Notes: generated from the sequence alone by a model not told the origin. A stretch of 46,291 nt of DNA from Parcubacteria group bacterium GW2011_GWA2_47_26 (GCA_001001705.1 LCOG01000003.1:1-46291); one strand, 5' to 3'. Counted from the first letter of the stretch, positions 2,281-42,314 are shown. Made by a program: numbers and translations.

Positions 2281-3552
2281 CTAGAGACCGTTGCAAAACT
2301 CAATTTTCGTCATCCCCGCGAACGCGGGGATCCAGCAATACCAATAAATCGTGGATTCCCGCTTCCGCTGGAATGACAGCAGAGAATGATTTGGGAGTTT
2401 TGCAATGAGCTCAACTATGTGGTTATTCGTCAAGTAGCGGTCTTTTGAATGTAGCGGTCTTTTGATAAAAATTTTAACAAGAGCCGTGGCCTCTCTGCTA
2501 TTTTTTACCCAGCGCACACTTCCATCTCTCCTCATCCACGCCATCTGTCTCCGCACATAAGCATGTGTATTGTATTTAATACGCTGGGCAACCTCTTTTA
2601 GCACAGCCACTTTCTGCGTGCCCGAAACATTGCGCGGCAATTCAAAATACGGCTTCCATTCCCGATAACCTATACCGGTAAAAGCAGGCAGTTTCCACAC
2701 ACATCCTGTCATTACTAGCATACTAGCTAGTATGCTAGTTTTTTTATCATGTAGAGTTCTTCGCAGATGTTTGTATGTCTTATGGTATACCCTTTTAACT
2801 TCATCAAATAATCCTGCTCGCAACATCTTTTCTACCCGCGCATCAATTGCCGGATAAAGTTTTGCCCTCGGCACATCAACACCGATTTTTAGCACCTCAA
2901 AAAGCGGCTGGCCTTTTTTTCGCAATTTAGAAAACGGCTTGCCTGTGGCTAGGCACACCTCCAGCGCCCGAATAATCCGCCGTGGATTATCTTTTGGCAC
3001 AAACTGCTCCGCATCCAGATCAAGTTTTAAAAGCCGCTTGTACCACTTTTCTAAAACCCGCGATTCTTGCCTGCCCCGTACTGAACTTGTTCTAGTGCGG
3101 GGATTCTTGCCTGCCCCGTACTGAACTTGTTCTAGTGCGGGGATTCTTGATTCTTGCAACGCGCGTTCAAACTCCTCTCTTAATTTTTTATTCGGTGGCA
3201 CATTTGGAATATCTAAATTGTCCACAACTGCCTGAACCCATAAATTTGTTCCGCCTACTAAAATCGGAAGCTTCCCCCTCCTTAAAATATCTTGAATAAT
3301 TGCCAGCGCATCGCACTTAAAATCAGCCACATTGTATTCTTCCCACGGCTCCACAATATCAAGCAGATGATGAGGCGCTCCACTTGTATTCATCACCTTC
3401 CCGGTCCCGATATCCATACCTTTATAAATCTGCCGCGAATCCGCGCTGATGATTTCCCCATTAAACTTTTTTGTCAAATCAATAGCCAGATTACTTTTCC
3501 CCGATCCCGTCGGACCGACTATGACAATCAGTTTAGATAAGTCAAGTTTCAT
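2281..3552 (-). CDS. miaA: tRNA dimethylallyltransferase with repeat-derived internal insertion and C-terminal extension
   Basis: GPTGSGKS P-loop, ISADSRQIYKGMDIGTGK, PHHLLD, VGGT, RRIIRALEV, GIGYRE. Confidence 0.95.
   Translation of the reverse strand: MKLDLSKLIVIVGPTGSGKSNLAIDLTKKFNGEIISADSRQIYKGMDIGTGKVMNTSGAPHHLLDIVEPWEEYNVADFKCDALAIIQDILRRGKLPILVGGTNLWVQAVVDNLDIPNVPPNKKLREEFERALQESRIPALEQVQYGAGKNPRTRTSSVRGRQESRVLEKWYKRLLKLDLDAEQFVPKDNPRRIIRALEVCLATGKPFSKLRKKGQPLFEVLKIGVDVPRAKLYPAIDARVEKMLRAGLFDEVKRVYHKTYKHLRRTLHDKKTSILASMLVMTGCVWKLPAFTGIGYREWKPYFELPRNVSGTQKVAVLKEVAQRIKYNTHAYVRRQMAWMRRDGSVRWVKNSREATALVKIFIKRPLHSKDRYLTNNHIVELIAKLPNHSLLSFQRKRESTIYWYCWIPAFAGMTKIEFCNGL
2282..2414. repeat. 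Composite palindromic element (outer TTGCAAAACTC/GAGTTTTGCAA arms around a CGTCATCCCCGCG...GGAATGACA unit at 2308-2378) forming the miaA 3' end
   Basis: Inverted arms visible; translates as WIPAFAGMT; miaA stop TAG lies at the element end. Confidence 0.75.
3062..3157. repeat. Exact tandem duplication of a 40-bp family E hairpin unit within miaA
   Basis: GATTCTTGCCTGCCCCGTACTGAACTTGTTCTAGTGCGGG x2 followed by GATTCTT heptamers. Confidence 0.9.
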
Positions 3553-3598
3553 AATATCCGCGACTTTATGATATACTTTGAGCATAGTATCTCGTCTT

Positions 3599-3693
3599 CG
3601 TCATCCTGAGCGAAGCGAAGGATCTCTGGCGAATGCCAGATCCCCGCACATTCGTGCGAGATTCTTCAGTCGCTTTGCTCCTTCAGAATAACA
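3599..3693. repeat. Family A (CGTC/TGTC-tagged REP-like doublet), intergenic
   Basis: CGTCATCCTGAGCGAAGCGAAGGATCT...GAGATTCTTC...CAGAATAACA. Confidence 0.85.
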
Positions 3694-3724
3694 CATAGCC
3701 GTGTTTTGCCACTCTATCCTTTCT

Positions 3725-4615
3725 ATGTCTCACACAACACATTCAATGAGTAAGACCCTCGCCACCGCTATCATTTTAAGCCTAGCCACTTTGATTTTGG
3801 AAGTAGCGGGCGGCATTTACACCGGCAGCCTTGCTCTTTTATCCGACGCCAGCCACCTATTTTCCGATTTTTTAGCCTTAACCATAACCCTCATTGCCCT
3901 GCGCATTGCGCGCCGCCCTGCTACTGCCAAACACACTTTTGGCTACCACCGCGCCGAGGTTTTTGGCGCGCTTATAAACGGTTTGCTTCTGCTTATTATG
4001 GCCGCATCCATTGGAGTCGCGGCGTGGCAACGTCTAAATATGCCGCATGAAGTTAAAGCTGAACTCGTCTCAATTATCGGTTTAATCGGCATCCTGCCCA
4101 ACATCTGGACTGTAATTCGTTTGAGGCAATCCCGCAATATCAACATAAAAAGCGCGTTTCTGCACGCTTTAGGCGATACTGCCTCATCAGTCGTTGTTGT
4201 CGTAAGCGGAGTTGTCATCGCACTTACGGGCCTAAACCAGTTTGACGCACTAGCTAGCTTTGTTGTCGTCGCTTTCCTGCTAATCGGCGCAATTCGTCTT
4301 ATCAAAAATGTCGCAATTATTTTTTTGGAGGGCGCGCCGCCGAATCTCAATCGCGAAAAAATTTCAAAAGCCGTCTGCGGTTTGCCTGGAGTTGTCTCCA
4401 CCCATGACGTTCATCTTTGGACCCTTTGTTCCGATGTAGTTTATTTTACGGGACACCTTATAATAGATGGCAAACCGAATTTACGCGAGGCGCAGGAAAT
4501 TGTAGCCAAAGCCGCAAAAACTTTGGACCATTTAGGCGTCCATCACACGACTTTGCAAATTGAGACTCCAGACCACGCCTGCACAAAAATCGAGATCTGC
4601 GAAATCGCCTACTAA
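3725..4615 (+). CDS. Cation diffusion facilitator (CzcD/ZitB-like Zn/Co/Cd exporter)
   Basis: SLALLSDASHLFSD, TFGYHRAEV, NIKSAFLHALGD, HDVHLWTL, HTTLQIE. Confidence 0.93.
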   Translation: MSHTTHSMSKTLATAIILSLATLILEVAGGIYTGSLALLSDASHLFSDFLALTITLIALRIARRPATAKHTFGYHRAEVFGALINGLLLLIMAASIGVAAWQRLNMPHEVKAELVSIIGLIGILPNIWTVIRLRQSRNINIKSAFLHALGDTASSVVVVVSGVVIALTGLNQFDALASFVVVAFLLIGAIRLIKNVAIIFLEGAPPNLNREKISKAVCGLPGVVSTHDVHLWTLCSDVVYFTGHLIIDGKPNLREAQEIVAKAAKTLDHLGVHHTTLQIETPDHACTKIEICEIAY

Positions 4616-4617
4616 AC

Positions 4618-6486
4618 TTAAGGCGCTACTTTTCTCCCCTCTATCTCTTTTTTAATTTTTTTTATAAACGCGCTCACACTCATCTGTTTCATGACTGCTG
4701 CTTGTCCGACTGAACTTTTGCCCCTGGCAAAAGTTGGGCGGGTTTCCTGGCCGCGAATGCGCACTGTTAATTTTTGGAGATTTTTTTCGCGATCGCCTAT
4801 AACTAAGATATAGGGTATTTTTTGCTTCTCCGCTTTGCGCACTTTATAAGGCACGGTCTCGCGCGCTTCATCAACCTCAACCCGGATGCCCTGATTGCTC
4901 AACATCTTGCCTAGCTTGCGCGAAGTTGCGCAGTGCGCTTTGCCCACCGGCGCGACATAGGCCTGTACAGGCGCAAGCCAAACCGGAAACGCGCCGGCGT
5001 ATTTTTCAATCATAAATGCGATGGTGCGCTCCAGCGCGCCAATTGAAGAACGATGCACAACAACAGGTTGCTCCTTTTCGCCTTTTTCATTAATATATTC
5101 CAGATTAAATCTCGCTGGCAGACAAAAATCATACTGAACAGTAAAAACAGTCTCTTCTTTAGCCATGATATTTTTCATCTGTATGTCAATCTTGGGTCCA
5201 TAAAATGCCGCCTCGCCTTTAGCTTCCACAAATGGAGCATGCAGATCTTTTAACACACTGCGCAGAACCGCCTCCGCTTCATCCCATGCTTTTGGAGCAT
5301 CATAATATTTTTCTTTATTCAACCGATCTCCCAGCGACAACCGATAAGAATAGTCCGTGCCTTTTTTAAAACCTAATATACCTACCGCATAATCAATGAG
5401 GTTAATCACCCGTTTAATTTCATCTTCTGCTTGATCCGTACGGCAAAAAATATGCGAATCCGCCAAACAAAAACTCCGTACCCGCATCAGTCCCGTTAGT
5501 TCTCCGGATTTTTCATAGCGATAGAGTTTAGCGAGCTCGGCAAAACGTATTGGCAGTTCGCGATAACTCCGCATCTTGTCCTTATACAACATAAAATGAT
5601 GCGGGCAAGTCATTGGGCGCAGAACTAGTTTATCCTCATCAACTTGCATAACCGGATACATCGTATCTTTGTAATAAGGATAGTGTCCGGAAATCTCATA
5701 AAGCTTCACGCGGGCAAGATCGGGAGTTATGACATGGCGATAACCGCGCTTTAGCTCTTCATCAACGATAAACCGTTCAAGTTCGCGGCGTATTGTTGCG
5801 CCACGTTCAGTCCAAAGCGGGAGTCCGGGTCCGACTTCTTCAGCCATCACAAATAAATCCAGGGCTTTGCCAAGCTTGCGATGATCCCGCTTCTCCGCTT
5901 CAGCCATCATGGCAACATACTGCTTTAATTCTTCCTCTGTCAAAAAAGCCAAACTGTAAATTCTCTGCAATTGCTTATTTTTCTCGCTGCCGCGCCAATA
6001 AGCTCCCGCAATACTTGTAAGCTTAAAAGCGCCAATCTGCCCCGCGTTATCAACATGCGGCCCTCGGCAAAGGTCCACAAATTTTCCAGTTTCATAAATA
6101 GTAACATCTTCCACCTTGCCCGATGCCGGAACATCCGCGGTTTCCTCTGGCCGAACTTTAGTCGTGCCATGCTTTTTTAAGTCTTCCAAAAGAGCTACTT
6201 TAAATTCTTGCTTGTGCTCCTTAAAATACGCAATCGCCTCTTCAAGCGACATTTCCTTGCGCACAAACTTTTCCTTGCGTTTCATAATCTCACGCATCCG
6301 TTTTTCAATGCGCGGCAAATCATCCGGCTTAAACGGCCGCGGCGGATCAAAATCATAAAAAAATCCATTTTCAATAACTGGTCCAACCCCTAGTTTAGTG
6401 CCCGGAAACAATTCCAAAACCGCCGCCGCCATAACATGGGCGGTGGAATGACGAATAGTTTCAATAGGTAATTTTGTCTCTCCCAT
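4618..6486 (-). CDS. thrS: Threonyl-tRNA synthetase
   Basis: RHSTAHVMA, DLCRGPH, RDHRKLG, PMTCPHH, AFYGPKID, anticodon-binding C-terminus. Confidence 0.98.
   Translation of the reverse strand: MGETKLPIETIRHSTAHVMAAAVLELFPGTKLGVGPVIENGFFYDFDPPRPFKPDDLPRIEKRMREIMKRKEKFVRKEMSLEEAIAYFKEHKQEFKVALLEDLKKHGTTKVRPEETADVPASGKVEDVTIYETGKFVDLCRGPHVDNAGQIGAFKLTSIAGAYWRGSEKNKQLQRIYSLAFLTEEELKQYVAMMAEAEKRDHRKLGKALDLFVMAEEVGPGLPLWTERGATIRRELERFIVDEELKRGYRHVITPDLARVKLYEISGHYPYYKDTMYPVMQVDEDKLVLRPMTCPHHFMLYKDKMRSYRELPIRFAELAKLYRYEKSGELTGLMRVRSFCLADSHIFCRTDQAEDEIKRVINLIDYAVGILGFKKGTDYSYRLSLGDRLNKEKYYDAPKAWDEAEAVLRSVLKDLHAPFVEAKGEAAFYGPKIDIQMKNIMAKEETVFTVQYDFCLPARFNLEYINEKGEKEQPVVVHRSSIGALERTIAFMIEKYAGAFPVWLAPVQAYVAPVGKAHCATSRKLGKMLSNQGIRVEVDEARETVPYKVRKAEKQKIPYILVIGDREKNLQKLTVRIRGQETRPTFARGKSSVGQAAVMKQMSVSAFIKKIKKEIEGRKVAP
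4701..4742. repeat. Family G-like palindrome inserted in-frame near the thrS C-terminus
   Basis: CTTGTCCGACTGAACTTTTGCC-CCT-GGCAAAAGTTGGGCGGG; encodes RPTFARGKSSVGQA; resembles CTTGCCCGCCCAAATTTT at 45782. Confidence 0.7.
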
Positions 6487-6540
6487 AATAAAAAATCGCA
6501 AACAAAATAGCGTGTTTTCGGGCGGGTAGGGCAAGGGTTT

Positions 6541-7695: not shown

Positions 7696-7783
7696 AGGCC
7701 TCCTATAAATTATGGATTATTAACATTACTAGTATAACAAACTAACCCCATAGTAAGCAACACCAATTTCAACCTGTCAAAAT

Positions 7784-7946
7784 TAGACCTGTCCCCAAAT
7801 AAGCTTTTGAGATAATTGTCCTGATTTTTGAGCGAAAACTGTTTCGCAGGAATGAGGCGTAATAGATGATTACGGCGAATTCCGAGAAACGGTTTGTAGC
7901 CGAAAATCAGGAGAATTAGCCAGAATGTTATTTGGGGACAGGTCTA
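7784..7946. mobile_element. MITE-like element, family D copy 2
   Basis: TAGACCTGTCCCCAAATAA / TTATTTGGGGACAGGTCTA TIRs; internal sequence homologous to 472-635; its end overlaps the TAG stop of the adjacent gene. Confidence 0.85.
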
Positions 7947-9029: not shown

Positions 9030-9155
9030 TTTATCAGCCCCGTACGAAATGGAGTAATTTAAGAGTGTTCCTAATATACCACATCTCCTTATCTAAAACA
9101 ACAATTATCTTAGCGGCCTTTATCCTCAACGCCCTCCGCCCCACCCTGCATGGCT

Positions 9156-9201: not shown

Positions 9202-9227
9202 GGAAAGCATATTTCGACGCCATCCAT

Positions 9228-10344: not shown

Positions 10345-10347
10345 ATG

Positions 10348-13390: not shown

Positions 13391-13482
13391 TGTCATTCTG
13401 AAGGAACAAAGCGACCGAAGAATCTCGCACGAATGTGCGTTCGCGCATACGTGCGGGATCCTTCGCTACGCTCAGGATGACA
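13391..13482. repeat. Family A doublet downstream of holB
   Basis: TGTCATTCTGAAGG...GATCCTTCGCTACGCTCAGGATGACA; near reverse complement of 3599-3693. Confidence 0.85.
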
Positions 13483-13484
13483 CT

Positions 13485-14450
13485 TCACTCACCAACCAGC
13501 ATATACTCTATTGCAAGCCGCGGATCAACATTAGCCCTAATCAAATGTTTTGCCTCTTGCACACGTCGCAAACTGCGTACAATCTGAAACGGCGTCATCT
13601 TCCCTGCGCACTCTGCGATCTTGTCTCCCATAAATCGATGCACTGGCTCTATTTTATATAAACCTAGCATTGCATCGCGCAATACGGATTCAAAAATTTC
13701 CATCAAACTACGCGCTTGATCCCGGCGTTCGTTCATCTTTGATATAGAACCAAGATTCTCTGCCGCCCATATCAATTTTTCACCATCATCTCCAGACAAT
13801 ACTTGAAGCGCCGCCGCGGACCTTGACTCATATTCTTCATACTGCGCACGCTCTGCCAAACGTATAGCCAATCCTGGCCTCCCTGCCGCAAGACTGGCGA
13901 TTTCCATACTATGCGGATGCTTACCTAAGTGCTTTATGATCTCGCGAGAACCTACAAAGCCAAACCTAATTCTCTGGCACCGCGAAGTAATCGTAGGCAA
14001 AAGCTCGCCATGCGTCACTAAAAACAACACCACATGAATGCCCGGCTCTTCCAATGTTTTCAGTAGGGAATTAGCGGCTTCAGTCGTCAACAAAGCCGCC
14101 TCTTCTATCATACCAATTCGGAGCGATCCGAGCAACGGCCGCGTTGACAACACAGAAATCAATTCGCGCGCCTTTTCAACAGATATGTGGGGGTCTTCGC
14201 CAATATCAAGCAAATGAAAATCCGGATGCGCATTATGCTCAAAAGTAGTGCAAGCGCGGCAAAACCCGCAAGGAATACTTGTTGCGCCCTCGCATAAAAT
14301 AGTTTTGGACAAAATTTTTGCAAAGGTAAATTTGCCAACATGCTCCGGACCCTGAAATAAATAAGCATGGTGCAATTTTCCGCTCCCTAGAGCTTTGGAA
14401 AAACAACCCTTGATGTTCTCGTGCCCAATAATCGGCCAATCAAATCGCAT
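13485..14450 (-). CDS. holB: DNA polymerase III delta-prime subunit
   Basis: HHAYLFQGPEHVGK, C4 zinc motif, HPDF, AANSLLKTLEEP, LPTITSRC. Confidence 0.93.
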   Translation of the reverse strand: MRFDWPIIGHENIKGCFSKALGSGKLHHAYLFQGPEHVGKFTFAKILSKTILCEGATSIPCGFCRACTTFEHNAHPDFHLLDIGEDPHISVEKARELISVLSTRPLLGSLRIGMIEEAALLTTEAANSLLKTLEEPGIHVVLFLVTHGELLPTITSRCQRIRFGFVGSREIIKHLGKHPHSMEIASLAAGRPGLAIRLAERAQYEEYESRSAAALQVLSGDDGEKLIWAAENLGSISKMNERRDQARSLMEIFESVLRDAMLGLYKIEPVHRFMGDKIAECAGKMTPFQIVRSLRRVQEAKHLIRANVDPRLAIEYMLVGE

Positions 14451-14567
14451 CCCGTTAGAAGCAGGTCGCGGTCATCCCGTCCTGCTTATTATTATTTATA
14501 TTTGATAAATTGATCTTTCGCATAAATATCATGTCCAGCAACTATCGCGACCGCGGCTTCTAACGGG
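14451..14567. mobile_element. MITE-like element, family F (CCCGTTAGAAGC...GCTTCTAACGGG)
   Basis: ~20-bp inverted ends, AT-rich core, AT on both flanks; homologue at 38790-38905. Confidence 0.85.
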
Positions 14568-15721
14568 ATGCATAAACTCGTTATTGTGTTCCACGTCTCC
14601 CTCGCCGCCTTGTCCCAGCTAAATTCGCGAGCGCGTTCCTTGCCTTTACTAATCATTTCTTGTCGTAATTTTGTATTATGCAATACTTCCGCCATGCCTC
14701 GCGCAATATCCTCGCTGTTTTGAGAATCAACATAATAGGCTGCCTCGCCGCCAACCTCGTGTAGCGCCGGAATAGCTGAACATACGACCGGCACGCCCGC
14801 GGCCATGGCTTCCAAAACCGGCAAACCAAAACCTTCTCCAAATGACGGCAACATCAGCAGCGCCGCATTTTTAAGCAACTCAAAATATTGCTCCCGCGAA
14901 GTCCAGCCTAAGTGTAGCACATGATCTTGAAGTTTTAAAGTATTGATGGCGTGTAATATTTCATCTCCACCATAGCCAAGTTGGCCGGCAAGAATAAGCT
15001 TCAAATCGGATGTAACTCCTCCATTCGCCTGCAGCGAATCTCCCCCTCTTAAGGTAAGAGGGGGTTGGGGGGCGTTATCAATCAATCTCCTAAATGCCCG
15101 AATCAACCCAAGCACATTTTTCTTTTTCTCCAGGCGGCTGATGAATAAAATGAACCCAGAAAAAGGGGACAGACCCCTTTTTGAATCAAAAAGGGGTCTG
15201 TCCCCTTTTTCCACTCCATGCGGGATCACTGCAATTCTTTCTTCTTTAACTCCCACGTGTACTAAATCATCTCGCGTTGCTTTTGAGGGCACAATTATCT
15301 GCCTTGCGCCTTTTAACGCCATGTTCAAACTTCGTCGCTGTCGTTTTAGATCTGCGGCATCATAAAGATCCGGCTGCAACAAAAAAATCACATCGTGAAT
15401 AGTTACCACCGTATTTTTAGGATGAACAAATGGAATTGTATAAGCAGGGACGAAAAGAACGTCCGGCTTGTTAAACATCATCTCTAAAGACAACCGTCCC
15501 TGCGTCCAACCCCGTCCAATCCATTTAAGTACTTTCCACTCCCAATTCCCATTCTTCATTCTCCATTCTTCATTCTCCATTTGCGGCGTATACAATCTAA
15601 CTTTCCACCCCTCCGGCGTACATTTTTCCATGGCTCGTAATAAAAAATAAGAGTACCACTCTACTCCTGTTTTCTCTTTCTTTATCGCGCGTGAAGCATC
15701 AATTCCCAAAACCTTTGGCAT
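14492..15721 (-). CDS. Glycosyltransferase family 4 (GT-B) with several repeat-derived insertions
   Basis: VVTIHD, SRLEKKKN, PSFGEGFGLPVLEAMAAGVPV, FSWDKAARET. Confidence 0.92.
   Translation of the reverse strand: MPKVLGIDASRAIKKEKTGVEWYSYFLLRAMEKCTPEGWKVRLYTPQMENEEWRMKNGNWEWKVLKWIGRGWTQGRLSLEMMFNKPDVLFVPAYTIPFVHPKNTVVTIHDVIFLLQPDLYDAADLKRQRRSLNMALKGARQIIVPSKATRDDLVHVGVKEERIAVIPHGVEKGDRPLFDSKRGLSPFSGFILFISRLEKKKNVLGLIRAFRRLIDNAPQPPLTLRGGDSLQANGGVTSDLKLILAGQLGYGGDEILHAINTLKLQDHVLHLGWTSREQYFELLKNAALLMLPSFGEGFGLPVLEAMAAGVPVVCSAIPALHEVGGEAAYYVDSQNSEDIARGMAEVLHNTKLRQEMISKGKERAREFSWDKAARETWNTITSLCIPLEAAVAIVAGHDIYAKDQFIKYK
15012..15077. repeat. CCCCTCTTAAGGTAAGAGGGG-type palindrome in-frame in the glycosyltransferase
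   Basis: Encodes NAPQPPLTLRGGDSLQANGGVT. Confidence 0.7.
15159..15211. repeat. Family C palindrome in-frame in the glycosyltransferase
   Basis: GAAAAAGGGGACAGACCCCTTTTTGA-A-TCAAAAAGGGGTCTGTCCCCTTTTTC. Confidence 0.85.
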
Positions 15722-17027
15722 ATGTGAGTGCTGTAATTCCCGGCAGCGGTTTTCCGCTCATGAACTGGAGTATCGCCCCGCCTCCCGTAGAAACAAAATC
15801 CACATCCTGCATCATGCCAGTCTGCTTCAGCGCGTCAATTGTCTCCCCCCCTCCAGCCACTCCAAAAGCCTTACCCCTTGAACGCGCCGCAAAAAGCCGC
15901 CCCAAAGCCGATGTCCCATGCGAAAAACGTTTTACTTCATAAAATCCCATTGGGCCATTCCAGAGTAACGTCGCCGCACTCTTGATATAATGCGCAAATT
16001 CTAAAATCGTCTTCGGCCCAATGTCCAAAATGGCGTATGGCTTAGAGCAAATCTGTAGGGCCGGGCCTTGCCTGCCCCGCACCGAACTCTGTTGCCGTGC
16101 GGTGGATGCCACGTCCCGCCCTGGCGGGAGGACAAGCCCCGGCCCTACATGTTGCATTTCCACCACTCGCGCCCCTTCCCCATCCTCTTTCCCCACCACT
16201 ACATCCAGCGGAAGCACAATTTTTCTATTCCCCACCAACTTTTTCGCCAGCCGCACTCCTTCCGCCTCGATCCGCGAACCGCCCACTCCATAGCCCATAG
16301 CCTTAAAAAAATGTAAAGCCAAAATGCCGCCAACGAGCACTGCCTCGGCTTTTCTCGTCATTATCTGCATCATAGCAATCTTATCCGTTATCTTAGCTCC
16401 ACCCATCAACACAATAAATGGCTTCTTTGGCGCCTTGAGAATGCTCCCGAGTGTATCTACCTCTTTTATAAGCGTAAATCCGGCATAGCTTGGTAAAAAT
16501 TTCGGTACACCTACAACTGAAGCATGCTTGCGATGACATACCGAGAATGCCTCATTGACATAAAAATCCGCCAACCCAGCTAACCCTTGAGCAAACGGTT
16601 TGCTATTCTTTTCTTCACCAGTCTGCAAGCGCAAATTCGGCAGCATCAACACTTGGCCACCCTTCATCGCTTTGATCATCTGCCCAATTTCTACCCAATC
16701 CCATTTATCTGCCATCTGCACTTTCTTTTTTAACAACTCACCCAAGCGAAAAATTGTCATTCTGAGGCCAGATGCCGAAGAATCCCGTAATTCTCTTCTT
16801 GAACGAGATCCTTCGCTACGCTCAGGATGACGAGAGAGAATCGGTCTTCCAAAATGCGACATCAAAATCACCTTCGCCCCTTTTTGTGCTAGCCACTCAA
16901 TCGTCAACACAGTCGTCCTAATCCTCGTATCATCCTCAATCTCACCATGTACGACCGGAACATTAAAATCCACGCGCACCAGCACTCGCTTCCCGCGAAT
17001 ATTTTTTAATTCATTCACCGACTTCAT
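15699..17027 (-). CDS. pgk: Phosphoglycerate kinase with two in-frame repeat insertions
   Basis: RVDFNVP, SHFGRP, HRKHAS, GGAKITDK, DIGPKT, WNGPMG, STGGGA. Confidence 0.96.
   Translation of the reverse strand: MKSVNELKNIRGKRVLVRVDFNVPVVHGEIEDDTRIRTTVLTIEWLAQKGAKVILMSHFGRPILSRHPERSEGSRSRRELRDSSASGLRMTIFRLGELLKKKVQMADKWDWVEIGQMIKAMKGGQVLMLPNLRLQTGEEKNSKPFAQGLAGLADFYVNEAFSVCHRKHASVVGVPKFLPSYAGFTLIKEVDTLGSILKAPKKPFIVLMGGAKITDKIAMMQIMTRKAEAVLVGGILALHFFKAMGYGVGGSRIEAEGVRLAKKLVGNRKIVLPLDVVVGKEDGEGARVVEMQHVGPGLVLPPGRDVASTARQQSSVRGRQGPALQICSKPYAILDIGPKTILEFAHYIKSAATLLWNGPMGFYEVKRFSHGTSALGRLFAARSRGKAFGVAGGGETIDALKQTGMMQDVDFVSTGGGAILQFMSGKPLPGITALTYAKGFGN
16054..16149. repeat. GTAG-tagged REP doublet with nested family E unit, in-frame in pgk
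   Basis: TGTAGGGCCGGGCCTTG...CAAGCCCCGGCCCTACA enclosing GCCTGCCCCGCAC...GTGCGG. Confidence 0.8.
16755..16832. repeat. Family A doublet in-frame in pgk
   Basis: Encodes RHPERSEGSRSRRELRDSSASGLRMT shortly after SHFGRP. Confidence 0.88.
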
Positions 17028-22459: not shown

Positions 22460-22515
22460 AAAAAAGGGACCACTTCTAAATTTTGCAAAGCAAAATTAGA
22501 GGCGGTCCCCTTTTT
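22460..22515. repeat. Family B palindrome downstream of the giant gene
   Basis: AAAAAGGGACCACTTCTAAATTTTGC-AAA-GCAAAATTAGAGGCGGTCCCCTTTTT; 6 related copies in window. Confidence 0.85.
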
Positions 22516-31899: not shown

Positions 31900-31959
31900 G
31901 AGAAAATAGGGACACTTCTAAATTTTGCTACGCAAAATTAGAGGCGTCCCTATTTTCTC
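31900..31959. repeat. Family B palindrome upstream of the giant gene
   Basis: GAGAAAATAGGGACACTTCTAAATTTTGC...GCAAAATTAGAGGCGTCCCTATTTTCTC. Confidence 0.85.
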
Positions 31960-34278: not shown

Positions 34279-35295
34279 ATGCAACTCATTGACGGCCGCG
34301 CAATTGCTGACAAAATCCGCCAAGAAGTAAAAGAAGAAATTACACGGCTCGGGATTACCCCGGGTCTTGGTGTTATTTTGGTTGGCAACGATCCGGCCTC
34401 GTATCTCTATGTGTCGTTGAAACAAAAGGCCTGCCAAGAGGTCGGCATTAAATTTGAAAAATATGTGTTGCCAACGACTGATACGCACAAAGGTGTCATT
34501 CCGAGGCGCGCAGCCGAGGAATCCCGTGCTGACCAGAATAACGAGATTCTTCGCTACGCTCAGAATGACAATGTGTGTGGATGCGAACAGTGTATTATTA
34601 ATCTAATTAGAAATCTCAATGTGCGTCCTGACATTCACGGCATTCTTGTCCAGGTGCCGCTACCGCCGCCATATAACAAAAATAAAATAATCAGCACTCT
34701 GGAACCAGACAAAGACGTTGATGGATTTCACCAAGTTAATCTGCGCGCCACTTTGGAGGGAGAGGCGCGCATCATTCCGGGAGTGGCTTTGGGGGTTGAT
34801 GCGCTTATTGGCGAGACATTGCGAGTAAAAGGAGCCGCCTCTAATTTTACGGAGCAAAATTTAGAAGTGGGTCCTTTTGCTAACTCACTTACAAATAAAA
34901 AAGCGGTATTGCTCATGAACAGTACCACTTTTGCATTGCCAATTGAATATTTACTGGAGGGGCGCGGAGCACTTGTGCATATTATTTTACGCCCTAGCGA
35001 GATTACCCCCGAGATCATCGCACAATTAAAAACTGCGGATATTTTTGTCGTGGCAATAGGGCGGCCGCAGATCATTAAGGGCGACATGCTTAAAGACGGC
35101 GCAATTGTTATTGATGTCGGCACTAATCGTTTACCGGATGGGAAGCTCGTTGGTGATGTAGATTTTGAAACTACCCAAAACAAACCCGGCTTTATTACAC
35201 CCGTGCCCGGAGGAGTGGGCCCGATGACTGTAGCGATGCTACTACGGAATACTATAGAGCTTGCCAAGGCGCAATCGAAGGCGCAAACGCGCTAA
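34279..35295 (+). CDS. folD: Bifunctional methylene-THF dehydrogenase/cyclohydrolase with two in-frame repeat insertions
   Basis: GILVQVPLP, KDVDGFH, IDVG, GDVDF, ITPVPGGVGPMTVAML. Confidence 0.96.
   Translation: MQLIDGRAIADKIRQEVKEEITRLGITPGLGVILVGNDPASYLYVSLKQKACQEVGIKFEKYVLPTTDTHKGVIPRRAAEESRADQNNEILRYAQNDNVCGCEQCIINLIRNLNVRPDIHGILVQVPLPPPYNKNKIISTLEPDKDVDGFHQVNLRATLEGEARIIPGVALGVDALIGETLRVKGAASNFTEQNLEVGPFANSLTNKKAVLLMNSTTFALPIEYLLEGRGALVHIILRPSEITPEIIAQLKTADIFVVAIGRPQIIKGDMLKDGAIVIDVGTNRLPDGKLVGDVDFETTQNKPGFITPVPGGVGPMTVAMLLRNTIELAKAQSKAQTR
34494..34570. repeat. Family A doublet in-frame in folD
   Basis: Encodes VIPRRAAEESRADQNNEILRYAQND. Confidence 0.88.
34827..34878. repeat. Family B palindrome in-frame in folD
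   Basis: Encodes KGAASNFTEQNLEVGPF. Confidence 0.85.
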
Positions 35296-35883: not shown

Positions 35884-35947
35884 ATATATTACCAGCGCCA
35901 CGCATCAGCAGGCTATGACAGGACTTTAGCCACAGGTAGTCCACAAT

Positions 35948-35995
35948 CATCATAGCTAATTCGTATTGCCATGGCAATACGAATTAGCTATGATG
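35948..35995. repeat. Perfect 48-bp palindrome upstream of PaaX-like gene 2
   Basis: CATCATAGCTAATTCGTATTGCCA|TGGCAATACGAATTAGCTATGATG. Confidence 0.9.
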
Positions 35996-36062: not shown

Positions 36063-37226
36063 TTAAAGCAGGCCCGCTAATTTTTGAATGACGCCGACCA
36101 GTAGCAGAGCAATCATCGCGAGGCCAAGAATGGTTTTTAGATTACGGCTGCGAACATGTTTCCGTTTAAAAAACGCCAACGCGACTAAAATAATCATAAT
36201 TGCATCAAACCCACCAAAGACACTGCCTACAATATCAATGACTTGCACAAAATTACGCGCTCCGGCCAGGAAAAGAAAAAATGGAACCCAGACCGCGAAA
36301 ATCCAGGCCGGTATAGCCTTGACTCTAAAATCATAGGCAAAAGTTTCCTTAAGGTACAGCGCGACAACCAAATAAGAAGTGACTACCGCAAAAAAGCCAA
36401 AGAGCGCGCCAAGCCAGATTATATTGCTACCGAGCGTGCTTCTTAACCCTTCAAAAGCTTCTTCAGTAGTTGCCGTGCCAGAAATACCTACGACGACTAG
36501 AGCAAAAAGTAAGGTAATTATTACTGGTACGATAGTCCCGACAATAATGCTGCCACGCATAACAAAAAGGGAACGTTTCTCTTTTTTCCGAAAAAAGAGA
36601 AACGTTCCCTTTTTGTTGACCATATCCCACATCTCCGGGATTGCCGCGGCGCCACTTAAAGCAAAAAGTATAATGCCATAAGGAAAAAATAATCCCGCAC
36701 CTGTGCCAGCGCCAATCAAATTGCTGGCTTCAATATGGGGAACGCCTAAAACAAGAATCACCGCTATAATCGCAAGCAGAAGCCAAGTCATCCAAAATTC
36801 AACCCGATCAAAAATACGCAAGCCTAAAAAGGTTATAGTAGCCACAAAGCCGAATAATAAAATTGTATAAAAGAAGCTACTGCTCCCATTGCCGCCTTGG
36901 AAGAGTATTTTTAAAAACGTTCCTCCAACCAACATGTAGGCTACTTGCGCGCCCCAAAAACTTAGGGTTTGAGAAATGGTAACAATTTTTTTTGCCGAAT
37001 GACCGAGATAGCGATCCGCATAGCCAACTAGACGATGCTTGCCCGGCGTTCCCGCTACTACTTCGCCAAAATACAGATTAATCAGAAGTGAAACTGCGCC
37101 TAAAAGCACAATCCAAAAAAGTCCAATGCCAAATCCGGCCCGCGCTGAAACATAAGGCACGGCAAAAAGCCCAACACCAATAATCATGCCCATTAAAATG
37201 ATTGTACCGTGTAAAAATTGCCGCAT
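36063..37226 (-). CDS. Aromatic amino acid permease family (HAAAP/TyrP-like) transporter
   Basis: GMIIGVGLFAVPY..AG, PYGIILFA, AVVTSYL; about 11 TM helices. Confidence 0.85.
   Translation of the reverse strand: MRQFLHGTIILMGMIIGVGLFAVPYVSARAGFGIGLFWIVLLGAVSLLINLYFGEVVAGTPGKHRLVGYADRYLGHSAKKIVTISQTLSFWGAQVAYMLVGGTFLKILFQGGNGSSSFFYTILLFGFVATITFLGLRIFDRVEFWMTWLLLAIIAVILVLGVPHIEASNLIGAGTGAGLFFPYGIILFALSGAAAIPEMWDMVNKKGTFLFFRKKEKRSLFVMRGSIIVGTIVPVIITLLFALVVVGISGTATTEEAFEGLRSTLGSNIIWLGALFGFFAVVTSYLVVALYLKETFAYDFRVKAIPAWIFAVWVPFFLFLAGARNFVQVIDIVGSVFGGFDAIMIILVALAFFKRKHVRSRNLKTILGLAMIALLLVGVIQKLAGLL
36561..36617. repeat. Family C-like 57-bp palindrome in-frame in the permease
   Basis: AACAAAAAGGGAACGTTTCTCTTTTTTC-C-GAAAAAAGAGAAACGTTCCCTTTTTGTT; half copy at about 34228. 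Confidence 0.85.
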
Positions 37227-37408: not shown

Positions 37409-38788
37409 ATGAATATGCCAAAACCTCTTTCCCTTGCCGAACGCGTTCCTCCTCAAAATATTGAGGCCGAGCAGTCTCTTTTAGGATCCCTGCTCATTGA
37501 CCGCGACGCACTTATAAAGATCGCGGACATTGTTACAGTGGAAGATTTTTACAAAGACAGCCATCGCATGATCTTTGAGGCCATGCTGGATTTGTTCAAA
37601 AATCGCGAACCAATTGATCTCCTCTCTTTAGGCAATCGTCTGGAAGAAAAACGCCAACTTGAAACTGTCGGAGGACGCACTTATCTTATTGAACTATCAA
37701 ACATCGTCCCAACTGCGGCCCATGTTCCACATTACGCTACCATTGTACAAAAAAAAGCGACCTTGCGGCGCTTGCTTGCGGCGGCAGCGGAAATTACGGG
37801 TCTCGGATTTGAGGAAGCGGAAGAAGTAGACAATATTCTAGACAAAGCTGAACAGAAACTCTTTGGGGTATCCCAAAAATATCTTAAGCAATCCTTCATC
37901 CCAATTCACGATGTGCTTTCCGAGGCCTTTGATCGCATTGACGAGCTGCACCGAGAAAAAGGCAAATTGCGCGGGCTTTCAACCGGCTTTGCTGAACTTG
38001 ATAACATTCTAGCGGGATTGCAAAAATCAGATTTAGTTATTTTGGCGGCGCGGCCATCAGTTGGAAAAACCAGTCTTGCCTTGGATATTGCGCGCTATGC
38101 CGCCACGCGACAAAAAATTCCAGTGGGCATCTTCAGTTTGGAAATGTCCAAAGAACAACTCGTGGATCGCCTCATCTGCGCGGAAGCCGGTGTTGACCTC
38201 TGGCGCATGCGCACCGGAAGACTTTCCGATCATCCGGAACAAGATGATTTTCCGCGAATTGGACACGCGCTCGGCACTCTTTCCGAAGCCGCGCTATATA
38301 TTGATGATTCCGCTTCCTCATCAGTCATGGAAATCCGCACCAAATCCCGCCGCTTGCAAATGGAAAAAGGCATGGGGTTGCTGATCGTTGATTATTTGCA
38401 ACTCATGGAATCGCGCACTAGAATTGAGAACCGCGTGCAAGAAATCGCGGAGATAACGCGCGCGCTCAAATCCATTGCGCGAGAACTTAACATTCCTGTG
38501 CTCGCGCTTTCCCAGCTTTCACGCGCTGTGGAGGCGCGCTCGCCCGCAATTCCCAAACTTGCTGATCTGCGCGAAAGCGGCAGTATTGAACAAGATGCGG
38601 ACGTGGTGCTTTTTATCTATCGCAAAGCCATGGATAGAAGCATACAATCCTTAAGCCCGGAAGAACGCAGTATCGCTGATATTCACATTGCCAAACACAG
38701 AAACGGCCCGACCGGACAAGTACAGCTTTATTTTGACGAACAAAAAGTCAGCTTCCGCAATCTGCAAAAAACGAGTCAGCCGTTCTAG
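37409..38788 (+). CDS. dnaB: Replicative DNA helicase
   Basis: PPQNIEAEQSLLG, AARPSVGKT, FSLEM, VDYLQLM, LSQLSR, DLRESGSIEQDAD, KHRNGPTG. Confidence 0.98.
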   Translation: MNMPKPLSLAERVPPQNIEAEQSLLGSLLIDRDALIKIADIVTVEDFYKDSHRMIFEAMLDLFKNREPIDLLSLGNRLEEKRQLETVGGRTYLIELSNIVPTAAHVPHYATIVQKKATLRRLLAAAAEITGLGFEEAEEVDNILDKAEQKLFGVSQKYLKQSFIPIHDVLSEAFDRIDELHREKGKLRGLSTGFAELDNILAGLQKSDLVILAARPSVGKTSLALDIARYAATRQKIPVGIFSLEMSKEQLVDRLICAEAGVDLWRMRTGRLSDHPEQDDFPRIGHALGTLSEAALYIDDSASSSVMEIRTKSRRLQMEKGMGLLIVDYLQLMESRTRIENRVQEIAEITRALKSIARELNIPVLALSQLSRAVEARSPAIPKLADLRESGSIEQDADVVLFIYRKAMDRSIQSLSPEERSIADIHIAKHRNGPTGQVQLYFDEQKVSFRNLQKTSQPF

Positions 38789-38789
38789 T

Positions 38790-38905
38790 CCCGTTAGAAG
38801 CCGCGGTCGCGACATACTGGAAAGCTAAATATACGCAAAAGGTCTCTATTATAATACTAAATATTAATCAGCAGGGTAGCACGACCGCGACCTGCTTCTA
38901 ACGGG
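38790..38905. mobile_element. MITE-like element, family F, filling the dnaB-recR gap
   Basis: CCCGTTAGAAGCCGCGGTCG...CGACCGCGACCTGCTTCTAACGGG directly followed by the recR ATG. Confidence 0.85.
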
Positions 38906-39505
38906 ATGAATTTTCCTCCTCCAATAACACGCTTAATCCAGCACTTTCGGGGTTTGCCGGGCGTAGGTCCGCGCACCGCCACGCGTTTTGTTTTTGCATT
39001 GCTTAATAAATCCGAAGACGAGCTGCGCGCTTTTGGCCATACTCTTGTAGATTTTAAACACAGCATCCGCACCTGCAAAGAATGCTTTAATATTTCCCTG
39101 CAAGACCCCTGCGAAATTTGCAGTAACCAAAAACGCGAACGTACTCTTCTTTGCATTGTTGCGCGCCCCCAGGACATTCAAGCTATTGAAGAAACGCGTG
39201 AATATAACGGCCTATATCACGTCTTGGGCGGAGTTTTGAATCCGATTGACGGCGTAACGCCCGAGCAATTAAGAATCAAGGAGTTGCTTACGCGACTTGA
39301 GGGGGAACAAAAATTTCAAGAGATCATACTGGCGCTGAACCTAGATATTGAAGGTGAGGCGACCGCGCTGTATTTGGCAAAGCTGCTTAAATCACGCGTG
39401 CCAAAAGTAACGCGGTTGGCGCGCGGTTTGCCTCAAGGCGCTGATCTTGAGTATGCTGACGAGGTTACGCTTATAAACGCCTTGAAAGGCAGACGCGATA
39501 TTTAA
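38906..39505 (+). CDS. recR: Recombination mediator RecR
   Basis: LPGVGPRTA HhH, C4 zinc finger, YHVLGG, EGEATA, RLARGLP..LEYADEVTL. Confidence 0.97.
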   Translation: MNFPPPITRLIQHFRGLPGVGPRTATRFVFALLNKSEDELRAFGHTLVDFKHSIRTCKECFNISLQDPCEICSNQKRERTLLCIVARPQDIQAIEETREYNGLYHVLGGVLNPIDGVTPEQLRIKELLTRLEGEQKFQEIILALNLDIEGEATALYLAKLLKSRVPKVTRLARGLPQGADLEYADEVTLINALKGRRDI

Positions 39506-39507
39506 AA

Positions 39508-39567
39508 AGAAAAAAAGAGAACACTTCTAAATTTTGTAAGCAAAATTAGATGCGTTCTCTTTTTTCT
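39508..39567. repeat. Family B palindrome between convergent recR and rplU
   Basis: AGAACACTTCTAAATTTTG...CAAAATTAGATGCGTTCT. Confidence 0.8.
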
Positions 39568-39582: not shown

Positions 39583-39903
39583 TTATCTAGAAATCTTTTC
39601 GATCTTGATCTTTGTATATTCTTGACGGTGGCCGTGCTCTCTCTTATAACGCACCTTGCGCTTGAATTTTATGACAGAAACTTTTTTACTGCGGCCTTGT
39701 TCAATTATAGCTCCGTCTACACTAGCTCCCGATACAAATGGCGCGCCAATTTTTATTTCGCCGCCTTCATCACCCACCAATAATACCTGATCAAAATTAA
39801 TTTTATCTCCGGATGCACCGGGCAATTTTTCTACTTTCAAGACACTGCCATCTTTGACAATGTACTGTTTTCCTCCCGTACTAATTACTGCGATTGTGGC
39901 CAT
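39583..39903 (-). CDS. rplU: 50S ribosomal protein L21
   Basis: AVISTGGKQY, VEKL, IGAPFV, GHRQEYT. Confidence 0.97.
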   Translation of the reverse strand: MATIAVISTGGKQYIVKDGSVLKVEKLPGASGDKINFDQVLLVGDEGGEIKIGAPFVSGASVDGAIIEQGRSKKVSVIKFKRKVRYKREHGHRQEYTKIKIEKISR

Positions 39904-39965
39904 ACAAAACAAAATTCGTGAGATTAAAACGTAAGGTTAAACTATACCAGCCCAGAAAAGATACG

Positions 39966-42314
39966 TCAAGTGGCTATTGCCGGGGCTTTTATCGCCTCCT
40001 CTAATTTAAGCGACAGGATTTTGGAAATGCCCTCGGCCGCCATGGTAACGCCGTAAAGCACTTGCGCGACGTGCATGGTCGCACGATTATGCGTTATAAC
40101 AATAAATTGGGTGCGGTTGCTTAACTCTTGAAGTATTGAAGCGAAACGCGCCGAGTTAGATTCGTCAAGAGCGGCGTCAACTTCATCAAGCACTACAAAC
40201 GGCGGCGGATTTAACGCAAGAATCGCCGACAAAAGCGCGATCGAGGTCATGGCGCGCTCTCCGCCAGAAAGCATGGCGATTGATTTGAGTTTTTTGCCGG
40301 GCGGAGTCGCGGAAATTTCCACGCCGCGGTAGGTATTATTTTTAGTGAATTTGTCTAGAAGCGACGGCCGCTCTGCTTGTCTGGATCCAGCTAGCGGGGA
40401 CGCTTCTAAATTTTGTTGCACAAAATTAGAAGCGTCCCCTTTCTCGCTTGCCGTCTCTGACTCCTTGGCAATGATCTTTGAAAGCTTGGCCTGTCCGCCG
40501 CCAAAAAGAATTTTGAAATAATTGCCAAACTCTTCATTGATTTTATCAAAGGCTGTTTCAAACTGGATTTTTATTGTTTGGTCAAGTTCTTCAAGCAAGG
40601 TTACCAATGATTTCAAAGAATTCTCTAAATCCCCTATTTGGCTGGCTAAAAATTCGTACCGTTCGCTGACTTCTTTATATTCCTTAACGACCTCGGCATC
40701 CACTCCGCCAATTGCTTCAAGCTGGCGTTTTAAGCGCTGAATTTCAGGCAAGATAGTCTGGGGATCGGCGGAACGCGATTCTTCATGATCCAGACCTTGG
40801 CGGGATTCGTTTAAAACGGCCAGATAGTTCTCCCCCATCTCCTGTTGAGCTTCAGCTTTCAAGGTTTCATAACGCGTTTCGATTTTGGCAATTTCGATTT
40901 TGGCGTTGTTCAAGTCTGCTTCGAGCGCGTGCACTTCCGACTGCTTGGCAGACAACTTTCTCTGTATATCAAAAAAGGATTGCTTTTTTTCTTCAGCCAG
41001 CCGGCCAACTCTTTGCAATTCCAGACGCAGCTTTTCAAGCTCTTGATCAATTGTGTTAAGATTGGCCACAATAGCGTCCAACTCTTTTGTAATTGCCGTA
41101 GCGCTTGCGGGAGCCTTTTCACCTTTAAGGCGGGCGAGGAGATCGGAAACAGTAGTATAGAGTGTGCGAAGATTACTTTTTATGTCATCCTGAGTTAACG
41201 TAGCGAGCGAAGGATTTCCTAAGGATGCGGAGCGCGTATTCATGCGAGATTCTTCGCTACGCTCAGAATGACGAAGCAAAACGTCGAGTTCCGTGCGCAC
41301 CCCTTCCAATATCTGCGCTATCTCATATACTGGCACGGACACAGCTTCTTTTTTAGTCTCTAGGAGCTTGCGCTTGAGGTCAAATTCTTTTTCGCGCATT
41401 TTTTCTTTGCGCGCGATAAGCGCCGAATACTCATCCTGGATCTTTAAAAGTTCTGCAGGCTTGGTTTCGCTTTTTTCCAGTACGCGCATCTCTAATTCAA
41501 TTGTTTTAAGCTCGGCGGTCTTTGAATCCAGTTTTGATTGCGCTTGTTCCATTTTATCGCGCCATGTTTTTGCTTCAGTTTCACCGCTTTGCAATAGGCG
41601 ACCGTAATACTGGATTTGTAAACTGCGCAGGTCCCGTTCAATATCGCCGCGCTGCTCTAGGCGGCGCACTTGACGGGTAAGCGATTTAAGACGCGGCGTA
41701 ATTTCTTCTTCTAGCATACGCGCCTGATATAGATTCTCCTCGGTCGCGGCTAGCTTTTTCAAAGCTTGCTCTTTTTTTAATTGCAGGGGGCGGACCCCTG
41801 TTGCTTCATCAAAAAAAACTTTGCGCTCCTCGGGCGAGGCAATTAAAATCTGATCAATCTGGCCTTGTCCGATTACGCTATACCCTTCTTTGCCAAACGC
41901 GGCTTTGGCCAAAAGCATTTGGATATCCATTAAACGCGTGGTCTTCCCATTTAAAAGATACTCGGACTCGCCATCGCGATAAAGCCGGCGCGTAATTGTT
42001 ACTTCTGCAATATCAAGCGGAATCCGGCCGTCTTCATTATTGACGGTTAATTGCACCTCGGACAGGCCGGCTCGCGCTCTTCGGGCTGATCCGCTAAAGA
42101 TAATGTCTTCGGATTTTTTTCCTCGGATCGCTTTGATGCTCTGTTCGCCCAAAACCCAACGTACGGCATCGGCGATGTTTGACTTTCCAGAACCATTTGG
42201 GCCAACAATAGCGGTGAGTGTAAGTTGCCCAGAAGCATCGGGAGAAGAAAATAAGAGCGTGGTCTTATCAGCAAAAGATTTAAAACCTTGGAGCTGGATT
42301 TGTTTGAGATACAT
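39966..42314 (-). CDS. smc: Short SMC-family ATPase (782 aa) with in-frame repeat insertions
   Basis: GFKSF, VGPNGSGKSNIADA, LSGGE, LDEVDAALD, ITH; no recognisable hinge domain. Confidence 0.9.
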   Translation of the reverse strand: MYLKQIQLQGFKSFADKTTLLFSSPDASGQLTLTAIVGPNGSGKSNIADAVRWVLGEQSIKAIRGKKSEDIIFSGSARRARAGLSEVQLTVNNEDGRIPLDIAEVTITRRLYRDGESEYLLNGKTTRLMDIQMLLAKAAFGKEGYSVIGQGQIDQILIASPEERKVFFDEATGVRPLQLKKEQALKKLAATEENLYQARMLEEEITPRLKSLTRQVRRLEQRGDIERDLRSLQIQYYGRLLQSGETEAKTWRDKMEQAQSKLDSKTAELKTIELEMRVLEKSETKPAELLKIQDEYSALIARKEKMREKEFDLKRKLLETKKEAVSVPVYEIAQILEGVRTELDVLLRHSERSEESRMNTRSASLGNPSLATLTQDDIKSNLRTLYTTVSDLLARLKGEKAPASATAITKELDAIVANLNTIDQELEKLRLELQRVGRLAEEKKQSFFDIQRKLSAKQSEVHALEADLNNAKIEIAKIETRYETLKAEAQQEMGENYLAVLNESRQGLDHEESRSADPQTILPEIQRLKRQLEAIGGVDAEVVKEYKEVSERYEFLASQIGDLENSLKSLVTLLEELDQTIKIQFETAFDKINEEFGNYFKILFGGGQAKLSKIIAKESETASEKGDASNFVQQNLEASPLAGSRQAERPSLLDKFTKNNTYRGVEISATPPGKKLKSIAMLSGGERAMTSIALLSAILALNPPPFVVLDEVDAALDESNSARFASILQELSNRTQFIVITHNRATMHVAQVLYGVTMAAEGISKILSLKLEEAIKAPAIAT
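40396..40439. repeat. Family B palindrome in-frame in smc
   Basis: Encodes GDASNFVQQNLEASP. Confidence 0.85.
41183..41273. repeat. Family A doublet in-frame in smc
   Basis: Encodes RHSERSEESRMNTRSASLGNPSLATLTQDD. Confidence 0.88.

Follow-up and report, generated by a model that had tools for sequence, protein, structure and literature searches.

In-frame palindromic repeat elements in housekeeping genes of a Candidatus Uhrbacteria-like bacterium

The stretch of DNA considered here (the window) comprises 46,291 nt of Parcubacteria group bacterium GW2011_GWA2_47_26 (GCA_001001705.1, LCOG01000003.1:1-46291), and constitutes the entire contig C3 of a genome of 842,361 nt in 26 contigs, rated 80% complete. 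Besides a 16S rRNA gene and three tRNAs, the window contains mainly housekeeping genes, and seven of its genes (miaA, thrS, a GT4 gene, pgk, folD, a permease gene and smc) carry 14 in-frame stretches predicted to form hairpins. With a probability of about 0.8, we propose that the window has been colonised by non-autonomous hairpin elements of the repetitive extragenic palindrome (REP) or MITE (miniature inverted-repeat transposable element) type, that these have been filtered by selection, and that the in-gene copies are translated as loop peptides. Broadly, at least nine families of short (~35-100 nt) elements would have spread within an Uhrbacteria-like lineage of the candidate phyla radiation (CPR), inserting anywhere, with selection retaining harmless copies only. 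Intergenic copies would persist, often as terminator-like hairpins just past stop codons; the in-gene survivors would be those with a frame-keeping length, a stop-free element frame and a permissive loop or linker as their site, and would be transcribed and translated as extra hydrophilic loop peptides.

The nearest PGK relatives in the protein database are labelled Candidatus Uhrbacteria or Patescibacteria, and judged by them the host is a Candidatus Uhrbacteria-like CPR bacterium. Orthologues of the seven genes were taken from five genomes of the same family (G001-G005, G000 being the genome of the window), and for pgk and folD also from about 20 more relatives in the class. Open reading frames (ORFs) were called crudely over the whole genome, which gave 827 ORFs and 91% coding.

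Inserts in the genes of the window

An original prediction, made from the sequence of the window, had placed frame-preserving insertions in eight genes. Orthologue alignment bears this out for the seven genes named above, and hairpins are predicted at all 14 sites, several of them with perfect arms of 13-28 nt. The eighth, a giant gene at 22535-31879, has to be dropped from the list, as it contains no family member and no convincing hairpin: compared with the genome it gave no repeat match at E <= 1e-3 and no strong hairpin, the sole trace being a 26-nt match of 77% identity. The orthologue comparison that had been suggested as a check was run on all seven genes, and the inserts proved lineage-specific, being without counterpart in the orthologues of G001-G005 save for one family-1 element of the GT4 gene common to G005. 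At least one further copy exists in the genome for 13 of the 14 inserts (up to 34 loci), and, the thrS singleton aside, the inserts belong to nine or more families. The features are as follows ("other loci" are further copies in the genome; "bridged" refers to contigs of other sequencing runs, described below).

2281..3585, minus strand: miaA host gene (IPP transferase), 434 aa against 307-339 aa in most relatives; Pfam IPPT 1.4e-65; five orthologues aligned
3062..3141, minus strand: miaA insert 1, a 40-nt unit twice in tandem; aa 141-174; one other locus
2707..2778, minus strand: miaA insert 2 of 24 aa, in which 2714-2739 form a perfect 13-bp palindrome; three other loci; bridged by contig X4 record 17
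2284..2460, minus strand: miaA C-terminal extension, 59 codons through two hairpin elements (...IPAFAGMT...); five other loci
4684..4731, minus strand: thrS insert, 16 aa, a hairpin with a 10-bp stem in the anticodon-binding domain; bridged by X1 record 1 and X4 record 19
15159..15211, minus strand: GT4 insert 1, perfect 26-nt arms, terminator-like (AAAAAGGGG...CCCCTTTTT); five other loci
~15030..15085, minus strand: GT4 insert 2, family-1 element (PQPPLTLRGG) plus a nested small hairpin; 23 other loci
14448..14575, minus strand: family-4 composite element at the GT4 end, arms TCCCGTTAGAAGC..CGCGGTCGCG around an AT-rich spacer; 32 other loci
16755..16833, minus strand: pgk insert 1, family-0 doublet (GTCATCCTGAGCG.AGCGAAGGATC ... 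GATTCTTCGG..CTCAGAATGAC) read HPERSEGS...GLRMT; 34 other loci
16053..16136, minus strand: pgk insert 2, 28 aa, a GC-rich nested hairpin; six other loci; bridged by contig X4 record 22
34486..34584, plus strand: folD insert 1, 33 aa, family-0 doublet read VIPRR...ILRYAQND; absent from 19 of 19 relatives
34819..34878, plus strand: folD insert 2, 20 aa, family-3 hairpin read KGAASNFTEQNLEVGPF; absent from 18 of 19 relatives
36561..36617, minus strand: permease insert, perfect 28-nt arms, terminator-like on both strands; three other loci
~41195..41273, minus strand: smc insert 1, family-0 element read RHSERSEES..., in the middle of the coiled-coil region; 22 other loci
40391..40444, minus strand: smc insert 2, family-3 hairpin read KGDASNFVQQNLEASPL; nine other loci

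The inserts differ in their effect on the host protein. The miaA product of relatives stops at about residue 375, before the C-terminal extension, and PGK, with its first insert immediately C-terminal of the GRP motif, is longer than every one of its best 120 homologues in a search of 5.8 billion proteins. GT4 insert 1 takes the place of a variable inter-domain linker, with a net added length of zero in the alignment, and at its end the GT4 frame enters the family-4 element and stops within it (C-terminal stretch 14537-14569, tail IPLEAAVAIVA...). miaA insert 1 and pgk insert 2 belong to one low-copy family, and one arm of the permease insert is identical to a hairpin 3' of the glyA stop (34228-34250). 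The thrS hairpin is a singleton, with no other locus in a copy search of the 80%-complete genome. The first 40 nt of GT4 insert 2 are identical (40/40) in the G005 orthologue, at the same codon, within coding flanks only ~75-80% identical. Such identity suggests two separate insertions at one site, or else gene conversion that homogenised the copies. A family-0 copy at 32822-32900, at the start of glyA, was not counted as an insert, since it falls in an over-extended N-terminus; the Pfam SHMT match begins at residue 50.

The inserts could in principle be products of misassembly or binning, with repeats of other community members collapsed into genes, and the setting invites it: read depth is 5- to 20-fold higher in bins with families 0 and 4, and therefore the same repeats must be present in many other organisms of the samples. 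This refuting possibility, raised with the original prediction, was examined in Logan contigs from four DNA runs of four studies, compared with 2200-22199 (run X1 may be the source sample). The contigs cover this stretch with no differences in the listed pieces, and contigs of two studies, from independent runs and made with a different assembler, span three inserts without a single difference (thrS in X1 and X4, miaA insert 2 and pgk insert 2 in X4). Moreover, no insert disrupts the reading frame of its conserved host gene, and the same kind of inserts is found in relatives from other assemblies. An artefact is thus already largely refuted, and we regard it as scarcely credible. The arms of family 4 are also found, with other spacers, in contigs of other members of the community (many 68-78-nt joints).

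Repeat families and their load in genes

Comparison of the genome with itself gave 478 repeat segments in 61 linked families; together they make up 3.2% of its length (27,179 nt), and within the families they align cleanly. Family 0 takes the form of an imperfect doublet (GTCATCCTGAGCG.AGCGAAGGATC ... GATTCTTCGCT.CGCTCAGAATGAC), family 1 has the form TAAC.CCCC...CCCCTCTTAA..TAAGAGGGG...GTTA, and family 3 consists of AAAAAGGGACCGCCTCTAATTTTGC...GCAAAATTTAGAAGTGGTCCCTTTTT. Family 4 is a composite of two inverted arms around an AT-rich spacer of ~70 nt, situated nearly always at gene junctions and overlapping gene ends, with copies in the window at 14448-14575 and 38788-38911 and ~13 more loci genome-wide. 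Family 2 is a putative MITE of ~160 nt with terminal inverted repeats (TIRs; GGGACTGTTGCCGAATA), present in the window at 1806-1909 and 43625-43725 and flanked by TTA on both sides in the copies inspected. The core motifs of families 0 and 3 occur five times each in the window, vs none in 100 shuffles, and an Rfam scan at gathering thresholds matched the 16S rRNA and the three tRNAs only, with no family fitting any hairpin. Another MITE-like family of ~165 nt, with TIRs TAGACTTGTCCC...GGGACAAGTCTA, occupies 470-637, 7782-7948 and 43435-43536, all intergenic.

The families found in genes also occur between them, as had been predicted. Segments within ORFs, between them and across an ORF edge number 43, 24 and 9 for family 0, 44, 11 and 2 for family 1, and 20, 11 and 5 for family 3, and the intergenic copies in the window (no strand assigned) are the following.

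3599..3693: family-0 copy between miaA and a cation-efflux gene
13392..13483: family-0 doublet
22461..22514: family-3 hairpin between convergent genes, 21 nt past the stop of the giant gene
31903..31956: family-3 hairpin, 28 nt past the stop of the ORF at 31984-32748
39511..39564: family-3 hairpin, 6 nt past the recR stop
43541..43594: family-3 hairpin
38788..38911: family-4 composite element, second window copy, between dnaB and recR

Over the whole genome, 231 segments fall within 138 of the 827 crude ORFs, 155 are intergenic and 92 lie across an ORF edge. A stricter count, restricted to families in which at least 60% of the members carry a perfect stem of at least 8 (a criterion that misses family 0, and a stem test that 7% of random 90-nt pieces pass), leaves 87 of 148 segments within 58 ORFs, 54 of them of at least 150 aa, among 595 such ORFs. 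The hosts are mostly recognisable genes. A Pfam scan of 99 of the 138 host ORFs, which left out 10 more of at least 120 aa, 7 in the window and 22 below 120 aa, recognised a family at E <= 1e-8 in 73. Among these are PheS, PheT and the Ile-, Val-, Leu-, Cys-, Arg- and Trp-type tRNA synthetases, proteins of DNA metabolism (DnaE, PolA, DnaG, RecG, RecJ, UvrA, UvrD), and others such as SecA, LepA, GatA, GatB, the a and gamma subunits of ATP synthase, MurJ, MurG and penicillin-binding proteins. Two ORFs of unusual composition were noted in this survey: a leucyl-tRNA synthetase of 1061 aa (G000 C13:5376-8558) with a Ser_hydrolase / alpha-beta hydrolase domain at 460-633 between synthetase parts, and an ORF (G000 C5:28233-29405) in which a type IV secretion pilin domain accompanies a DUF559 endonuclease-like domain (1.3e-32), and which may be two genes joined by the crude ORF call.

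Fate of the inserts and competing explanations

Whether the inserts reach the protein can be approached from their reading frames. One family is indeed read in different frames, as the original prediction had stated (HPERSEGS or VILNAVKD; ILRYAQND or FFxxxRMT), and the choice of frame follows the availability of stop-free ones. One frame of family 3 is free of stops in 13 of 15 intergenic copies and the other two are closed in all 15, and the sense copies within ORFs use the open frame in 10 of 10 cases (12 of 12 at a looser threshold). The left arm of family 0 has two open frames and one closed; its in-ORF copies fall 10 and 2 in the open frames, with 0 of 12 in the closed one. Of 38 family-1 copies, 34 give the reading PPLxLRGG. 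The inserts are therefore likely translated as part of the host protein, because in-gene copies use stop-free frames only, whereas excision from the RNA would make both frame and stops irrelevant.

Removal or bypassing of the inserts before the protein is made, through RNA excision (e.g., stem cleavage and RtcB ligation) or translational bypassing, would leave the host proteins unaltered. RtcB is encoded in the genome, and intervening sequences in the rRNA genes of CPR genomes are known, a precedent that we count in favour of such removal. The host frame is nevertheless always kept by the in-gene copies, which would again be irrelevant if the elements were removed, and we know of no self-splicing capacity in short hairpins. 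We consider this explanation very improbable.

Translation into extra loops agrees with the predicted structures. The suggested mapping of the inserts on structures was carried out for PGK and FolD, with AlphaFold2 models built from orthologue alignments, and the stretches of low confidence coincide with the inserts and the termini. The PGK fold is kept (mean predicted local distance difference test score, pLDDT, 85.6), with values below 50 only at 1-15, 88-92 (insert 1), 314-338 (insert 2) and 456-460. FolD likewise keeps its fold (mean pLDDT 87.6), with low blocks at 71-100 (insert 1) and 181-200, and values below 50 at 189-197 (insert 2). The sites of insertion would thus be permissive, with the folds predicted intact.

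Another possibility is that the hairpins are functional cis-elements rather than tolerated selfish DNA: inside genes, the terminator-like families (family 3 and the permease and GT4 types) would influence mRNA stability or bring about attenuation that depends on translation, and selection would have favoured their spread into coding DNA. Of the four family-3 copies located between genes of the window, three sit 6-28 nt past a stop codon, the permease insert and the hairpin after glyA, which have one arm identical, both score as terminator-like, T-runs of 4-5 are kept in most in-gene family-3 copies, and the GT4 element shows no change between two genera despite diverged flanks. Nonetheless, a terminator scan was not enriched overall (31 found vs 27.0 expected from shuffles), and the elements and their positions differ in each relative, a state more in keeping with accident and subsequent filtering than with regulation by conserved design. 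A selected function of this kind is, in our judgement, unlikely.

Relatives, candidate mobilisers and known systems

Relatives differ in the elements that they carry. The family-3 core has 29 matches in G000 and none in the other 150 of 151 genomes sampled from the class, three same-family genomes included. The family-0 core is found in 17 of 46 genomes (one sampled per family), most often in G000 (33) and then in G024 (18), and its reversed control gave zero matches in the 46. As far as these genomes go, family 3 is confined to G000 and family 0 is patchy across the class, which is new here. Family-0 copies lie deep in an ORF of at least 150 aa in 16 of 33 cases in G000 vs 3 of 24 sampled in other genomes, the latter sample being best-match loci and hence non-random. 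The restriction of the family-3 core to G000 and the perfect 26-28-nt arms in some genes point to recent activity of the elements.

The original prediction had also suggested that the density and diversity of the families are exceptional for an organism with a small genome. Density is high (138 of 827 ORFs), but the trait is not unique to this genome: private internal inserts of at least 8 aa in the seven genes number 7 in G000 and 6 in G003, while G002 and G005 have a single one each, and G001 and G004 none. Six inserts of relatives were picked for folding (three of G003, two of G005, and the G003 folD insert at the shared site), and all six form hairpins. Several loops have been struck by different elements across genera, namely PGK after GRP, the middle of the SMC coiled coil (with other hairpin inserts in G003 and G005), folD residue 181, where G003 carries a different hairpin at the site of insert 2, and the GT4 linker.

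A search for mobilisers, also suggested beforehand, was rewarded in part: it gave one gene resembling REP-associated tyrosine transposases (RAYTs) with a hairpin family of its own, but no tie to the families of the window. This gene (C5:68001-68600; PF01797 32.9 bits, cut-off 23) is the sole Y1/HUH transposase gene in the assembly; HUH-like HFH and YIHLN motifs are visible in its product, whose best PDB match, ISDra2 TnpA, is weak (E 0.92). Homologues are present in 14 of 46 genomes of the class, that of G003 being full-length and 68% identical. In G000 the gene is flanked by GTGGCTAGGCCAC/GTGGCCTAGCCAC hairpins at -140 and over its 3' end, and the homologues in G003, G016, G026 and G038 have another, genome-specific hairpin on both sides, so that the pattern is seen in 5 of 10 loci examined; by its layout this is a REP-RAYT arrangement. 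The GTGGCTAGGCCAC hairpin family has 18 loci in G000, 5-6 of them deep in long ORFs and none in the window. New here is a putative RAYT whose flanking hairpins belong to a family with further copies inside genes, and the gene is a candidate mobiliser, with no link to the window families. One in-gene copy was compared with orthologues, in UDP-glucose dehydrogenase, where it occupies a variable loop (+4-11 residues vs four orthologues). The UDP-glucose dehydrogenase of G004 (C1:16714-19446) is a single frame of 916 aa with ~1.4 kb inserted after GGAC, the catalytic-cysteine motif, and this insertion looks like an intein. As for GIY-YIG nucleases, seven matches were found in the genome, three or four of them small free-standing genes, none bracketed by a repeat family.

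Several observations weigh against the colonisation that we propose. The translation of the inserts is read from sequences, the argument from frame usage is partly one of survivorship, as closed-frame insertions may exist as split genes, and low pLDDT at the inserts is partly due to empty alignment columns. Simple old insertion followed by drift fails to account for the 40/40 identity of the GT4 element across two genera. Mobility itself is inferred, with no empty-site allele among the listed joints or the PGK database matches: no insert-removing joint was among the 15 joints listed of 53 in the four DNA runs, whose contigs drop rare variants, and the PGK homologues in the protein database reached 61% identity at most. 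Since no empty sites were seen, exact element boundaries and target duplications cannot be fixed. DDE_3, DDE_Tnp_1, rve and TnpB gave no match in the 80%-complete assembly, which leaves no transposase for the window families. The RAYT-like gene scores 32.3 bits against the NCBIfam RAYT model NF047646, under the cut-off of 80; its flanking hairpin differs from families 0, 1 and 3, and the family-0 motif lies within 1.5 kb of RAYT-like genes at 0 of 12 loci. Family 0 and the gene are associated only weakly over the 46 genomes (both in 9, family 0 only in 8, the gene only in 5, neither in 24; Fisher p 0.019). Lastly, families 3 and 0 have no preferred orientation relative to GC skew or to the strand of the genes (p 0.18 to 1.0), contrary to what single-strand transposition would lead one to expect.

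Among known systems, the closest are the Rickettsia palindromic elements (RPE-1 to RPE-10; Ogata et al. 2000, 2002), described in the passages covered as repeats of 100-150 bp, intergenic and coding, spread in lineage-specific bursts, one of them in pheT (PMC10969869, PMC1779305). The Rickettsia-like interpretation offered originally holds well, with interspersed palindromic families that are also intergenic, frame-preserving and lineage-specific. Judged by these descriptions, both cases have palindromic repeats between genes and in frame in unrelated housekeeping genes, aminoacyl-tRNA synthetases included, together with lineage-wise proliferation, a small genome and a fold predicted to tolerate the insert. 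The elements here are shorter (~35-100 nt against 100-150 bp) and come in at least nine families per 46-kb window, kinship with RPEs being judged by description; the host, a CPR bacterium from groundwater, is free-living or an episymbiont, unlike the intracellular alphaproteobacterial host of RPEs; and some families resemble intrinsic terminators, while one hairpin family flanks a RAYT-like gene. The present case works as RPEs do, and differs in element size, family number, host and links to REP-RAYT systems and terminators.

REPs are, in the parts of the sources covered, extragenic by definition and usually present in more than 100 copies (Nunvar 2010 PMC2817692; Bertels and Rainey 2011 PMC3116915). 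The HUH/Y1 transposase gene found here, present once, flanked by a dispersed hairpin and with homologues that have genome-specific hairpins, recalls these REP/REPIN-RAYT systems, from which it departs in having a hairpin family of 18 loci, 5-6 of them in long ORFs, and a score below the NCBIfam RAYT cut-off; unlike tagged REPs, no GTAG or CGTC tag is evident in its flanking hairpin. In-frame MITEs, such as ERIC, the Anabaena MITEs and Coxiella QMITE1 (PMC10969869), are likewise small non-autonomous elements with a built-in open frame fused with host ORFs, but are occasional cases in that account, against about one ORF in ten to one in six here. Family 3 and the permease/GT4 type share with SPRITE of Streptococcus pneumoniae (PMC10969869) an A-run, GC stem and T-run located post-stop. 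Hairpins also flank Ssn GIY-YIG nucleases (PMC11893778). The present genome has 3-4 small free-standing GIY-YIG genes, but none of its GIY-YIG genes has a repeat family on its two sides; the passages covered do not describe in-frame coding copies for SPRITE or the Ssn-flanking repeats. Our literature search found no description of in-frame palindromic coding repeats in CPR / Patescibacteria, and no paper joining RAYT/REPIN and Patescibacteria.

Selfish palindromes read into protein have so far been treated as a curiosity of Rickettsia and Wolbachia, and here they are several-fold denser, in many short families, in a CPR genome of less than 1 Mb and also in some relatives. If colonisation is the right explanation, many lineage-specific loop insertions of odd-looking CPR proteins may be footprints of mobile elements, gene callers and homology tools will encounter recurrent junk peptides such as HPERSEGS, ILRYAQND and PPLTLRGG, and the system would be a natural experiment on insertion-tolerant protein loops. 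The RAYT-flanked hairpin family with in-gene copies provides a concrete candidate enzyme for the role of mobiliser; to our knowledge, the mobiliser of the Rickettsia palindromic elements was never found. A bolder view, which we hold to be unlikely, is that the in-gene terminator-like hairpins constitute a genome-wide translation-coupled attenuation, and that the RAYT-like gene, with its own hairpin family, is the first mobiliser of protein-coding palindromes to be identified. If it were true, the translating ribosome alone would keep the hairpin melted, transcription of the host gene would hinge on ongoing translation, and an attenuation layer would exist in a bacterium with very few regulators.

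Further repeats of the window concern other features. A second copy of the 3' half of a tRNA-Met (43354-43391) occurs 56 nt downstream, at 43410-43447 (92% identity), with a MITE copy following at 43449-43536; the region 43317-43447 resembles the trace left by integration at the tRNA. Upstream of smc, where there is no long ORF, a GC-rich tandem repeat of 30-33 nt (GGCGCGGGTTCGGGCGCGGCGGTCTCGGCG, two exact and one partial copy) extends over 42488-42565. Two paralogous PaaX-like genes (9228-9815 and 35320-35901), 31% identical, share the PaaX_M Cas2-like domain, and each lies between copies of a near-perfect palindrome of 44-53 nt (9154-9910; 35291-35995); these palindromes may be operators, or the gene may lie inside a long inverted repeat.

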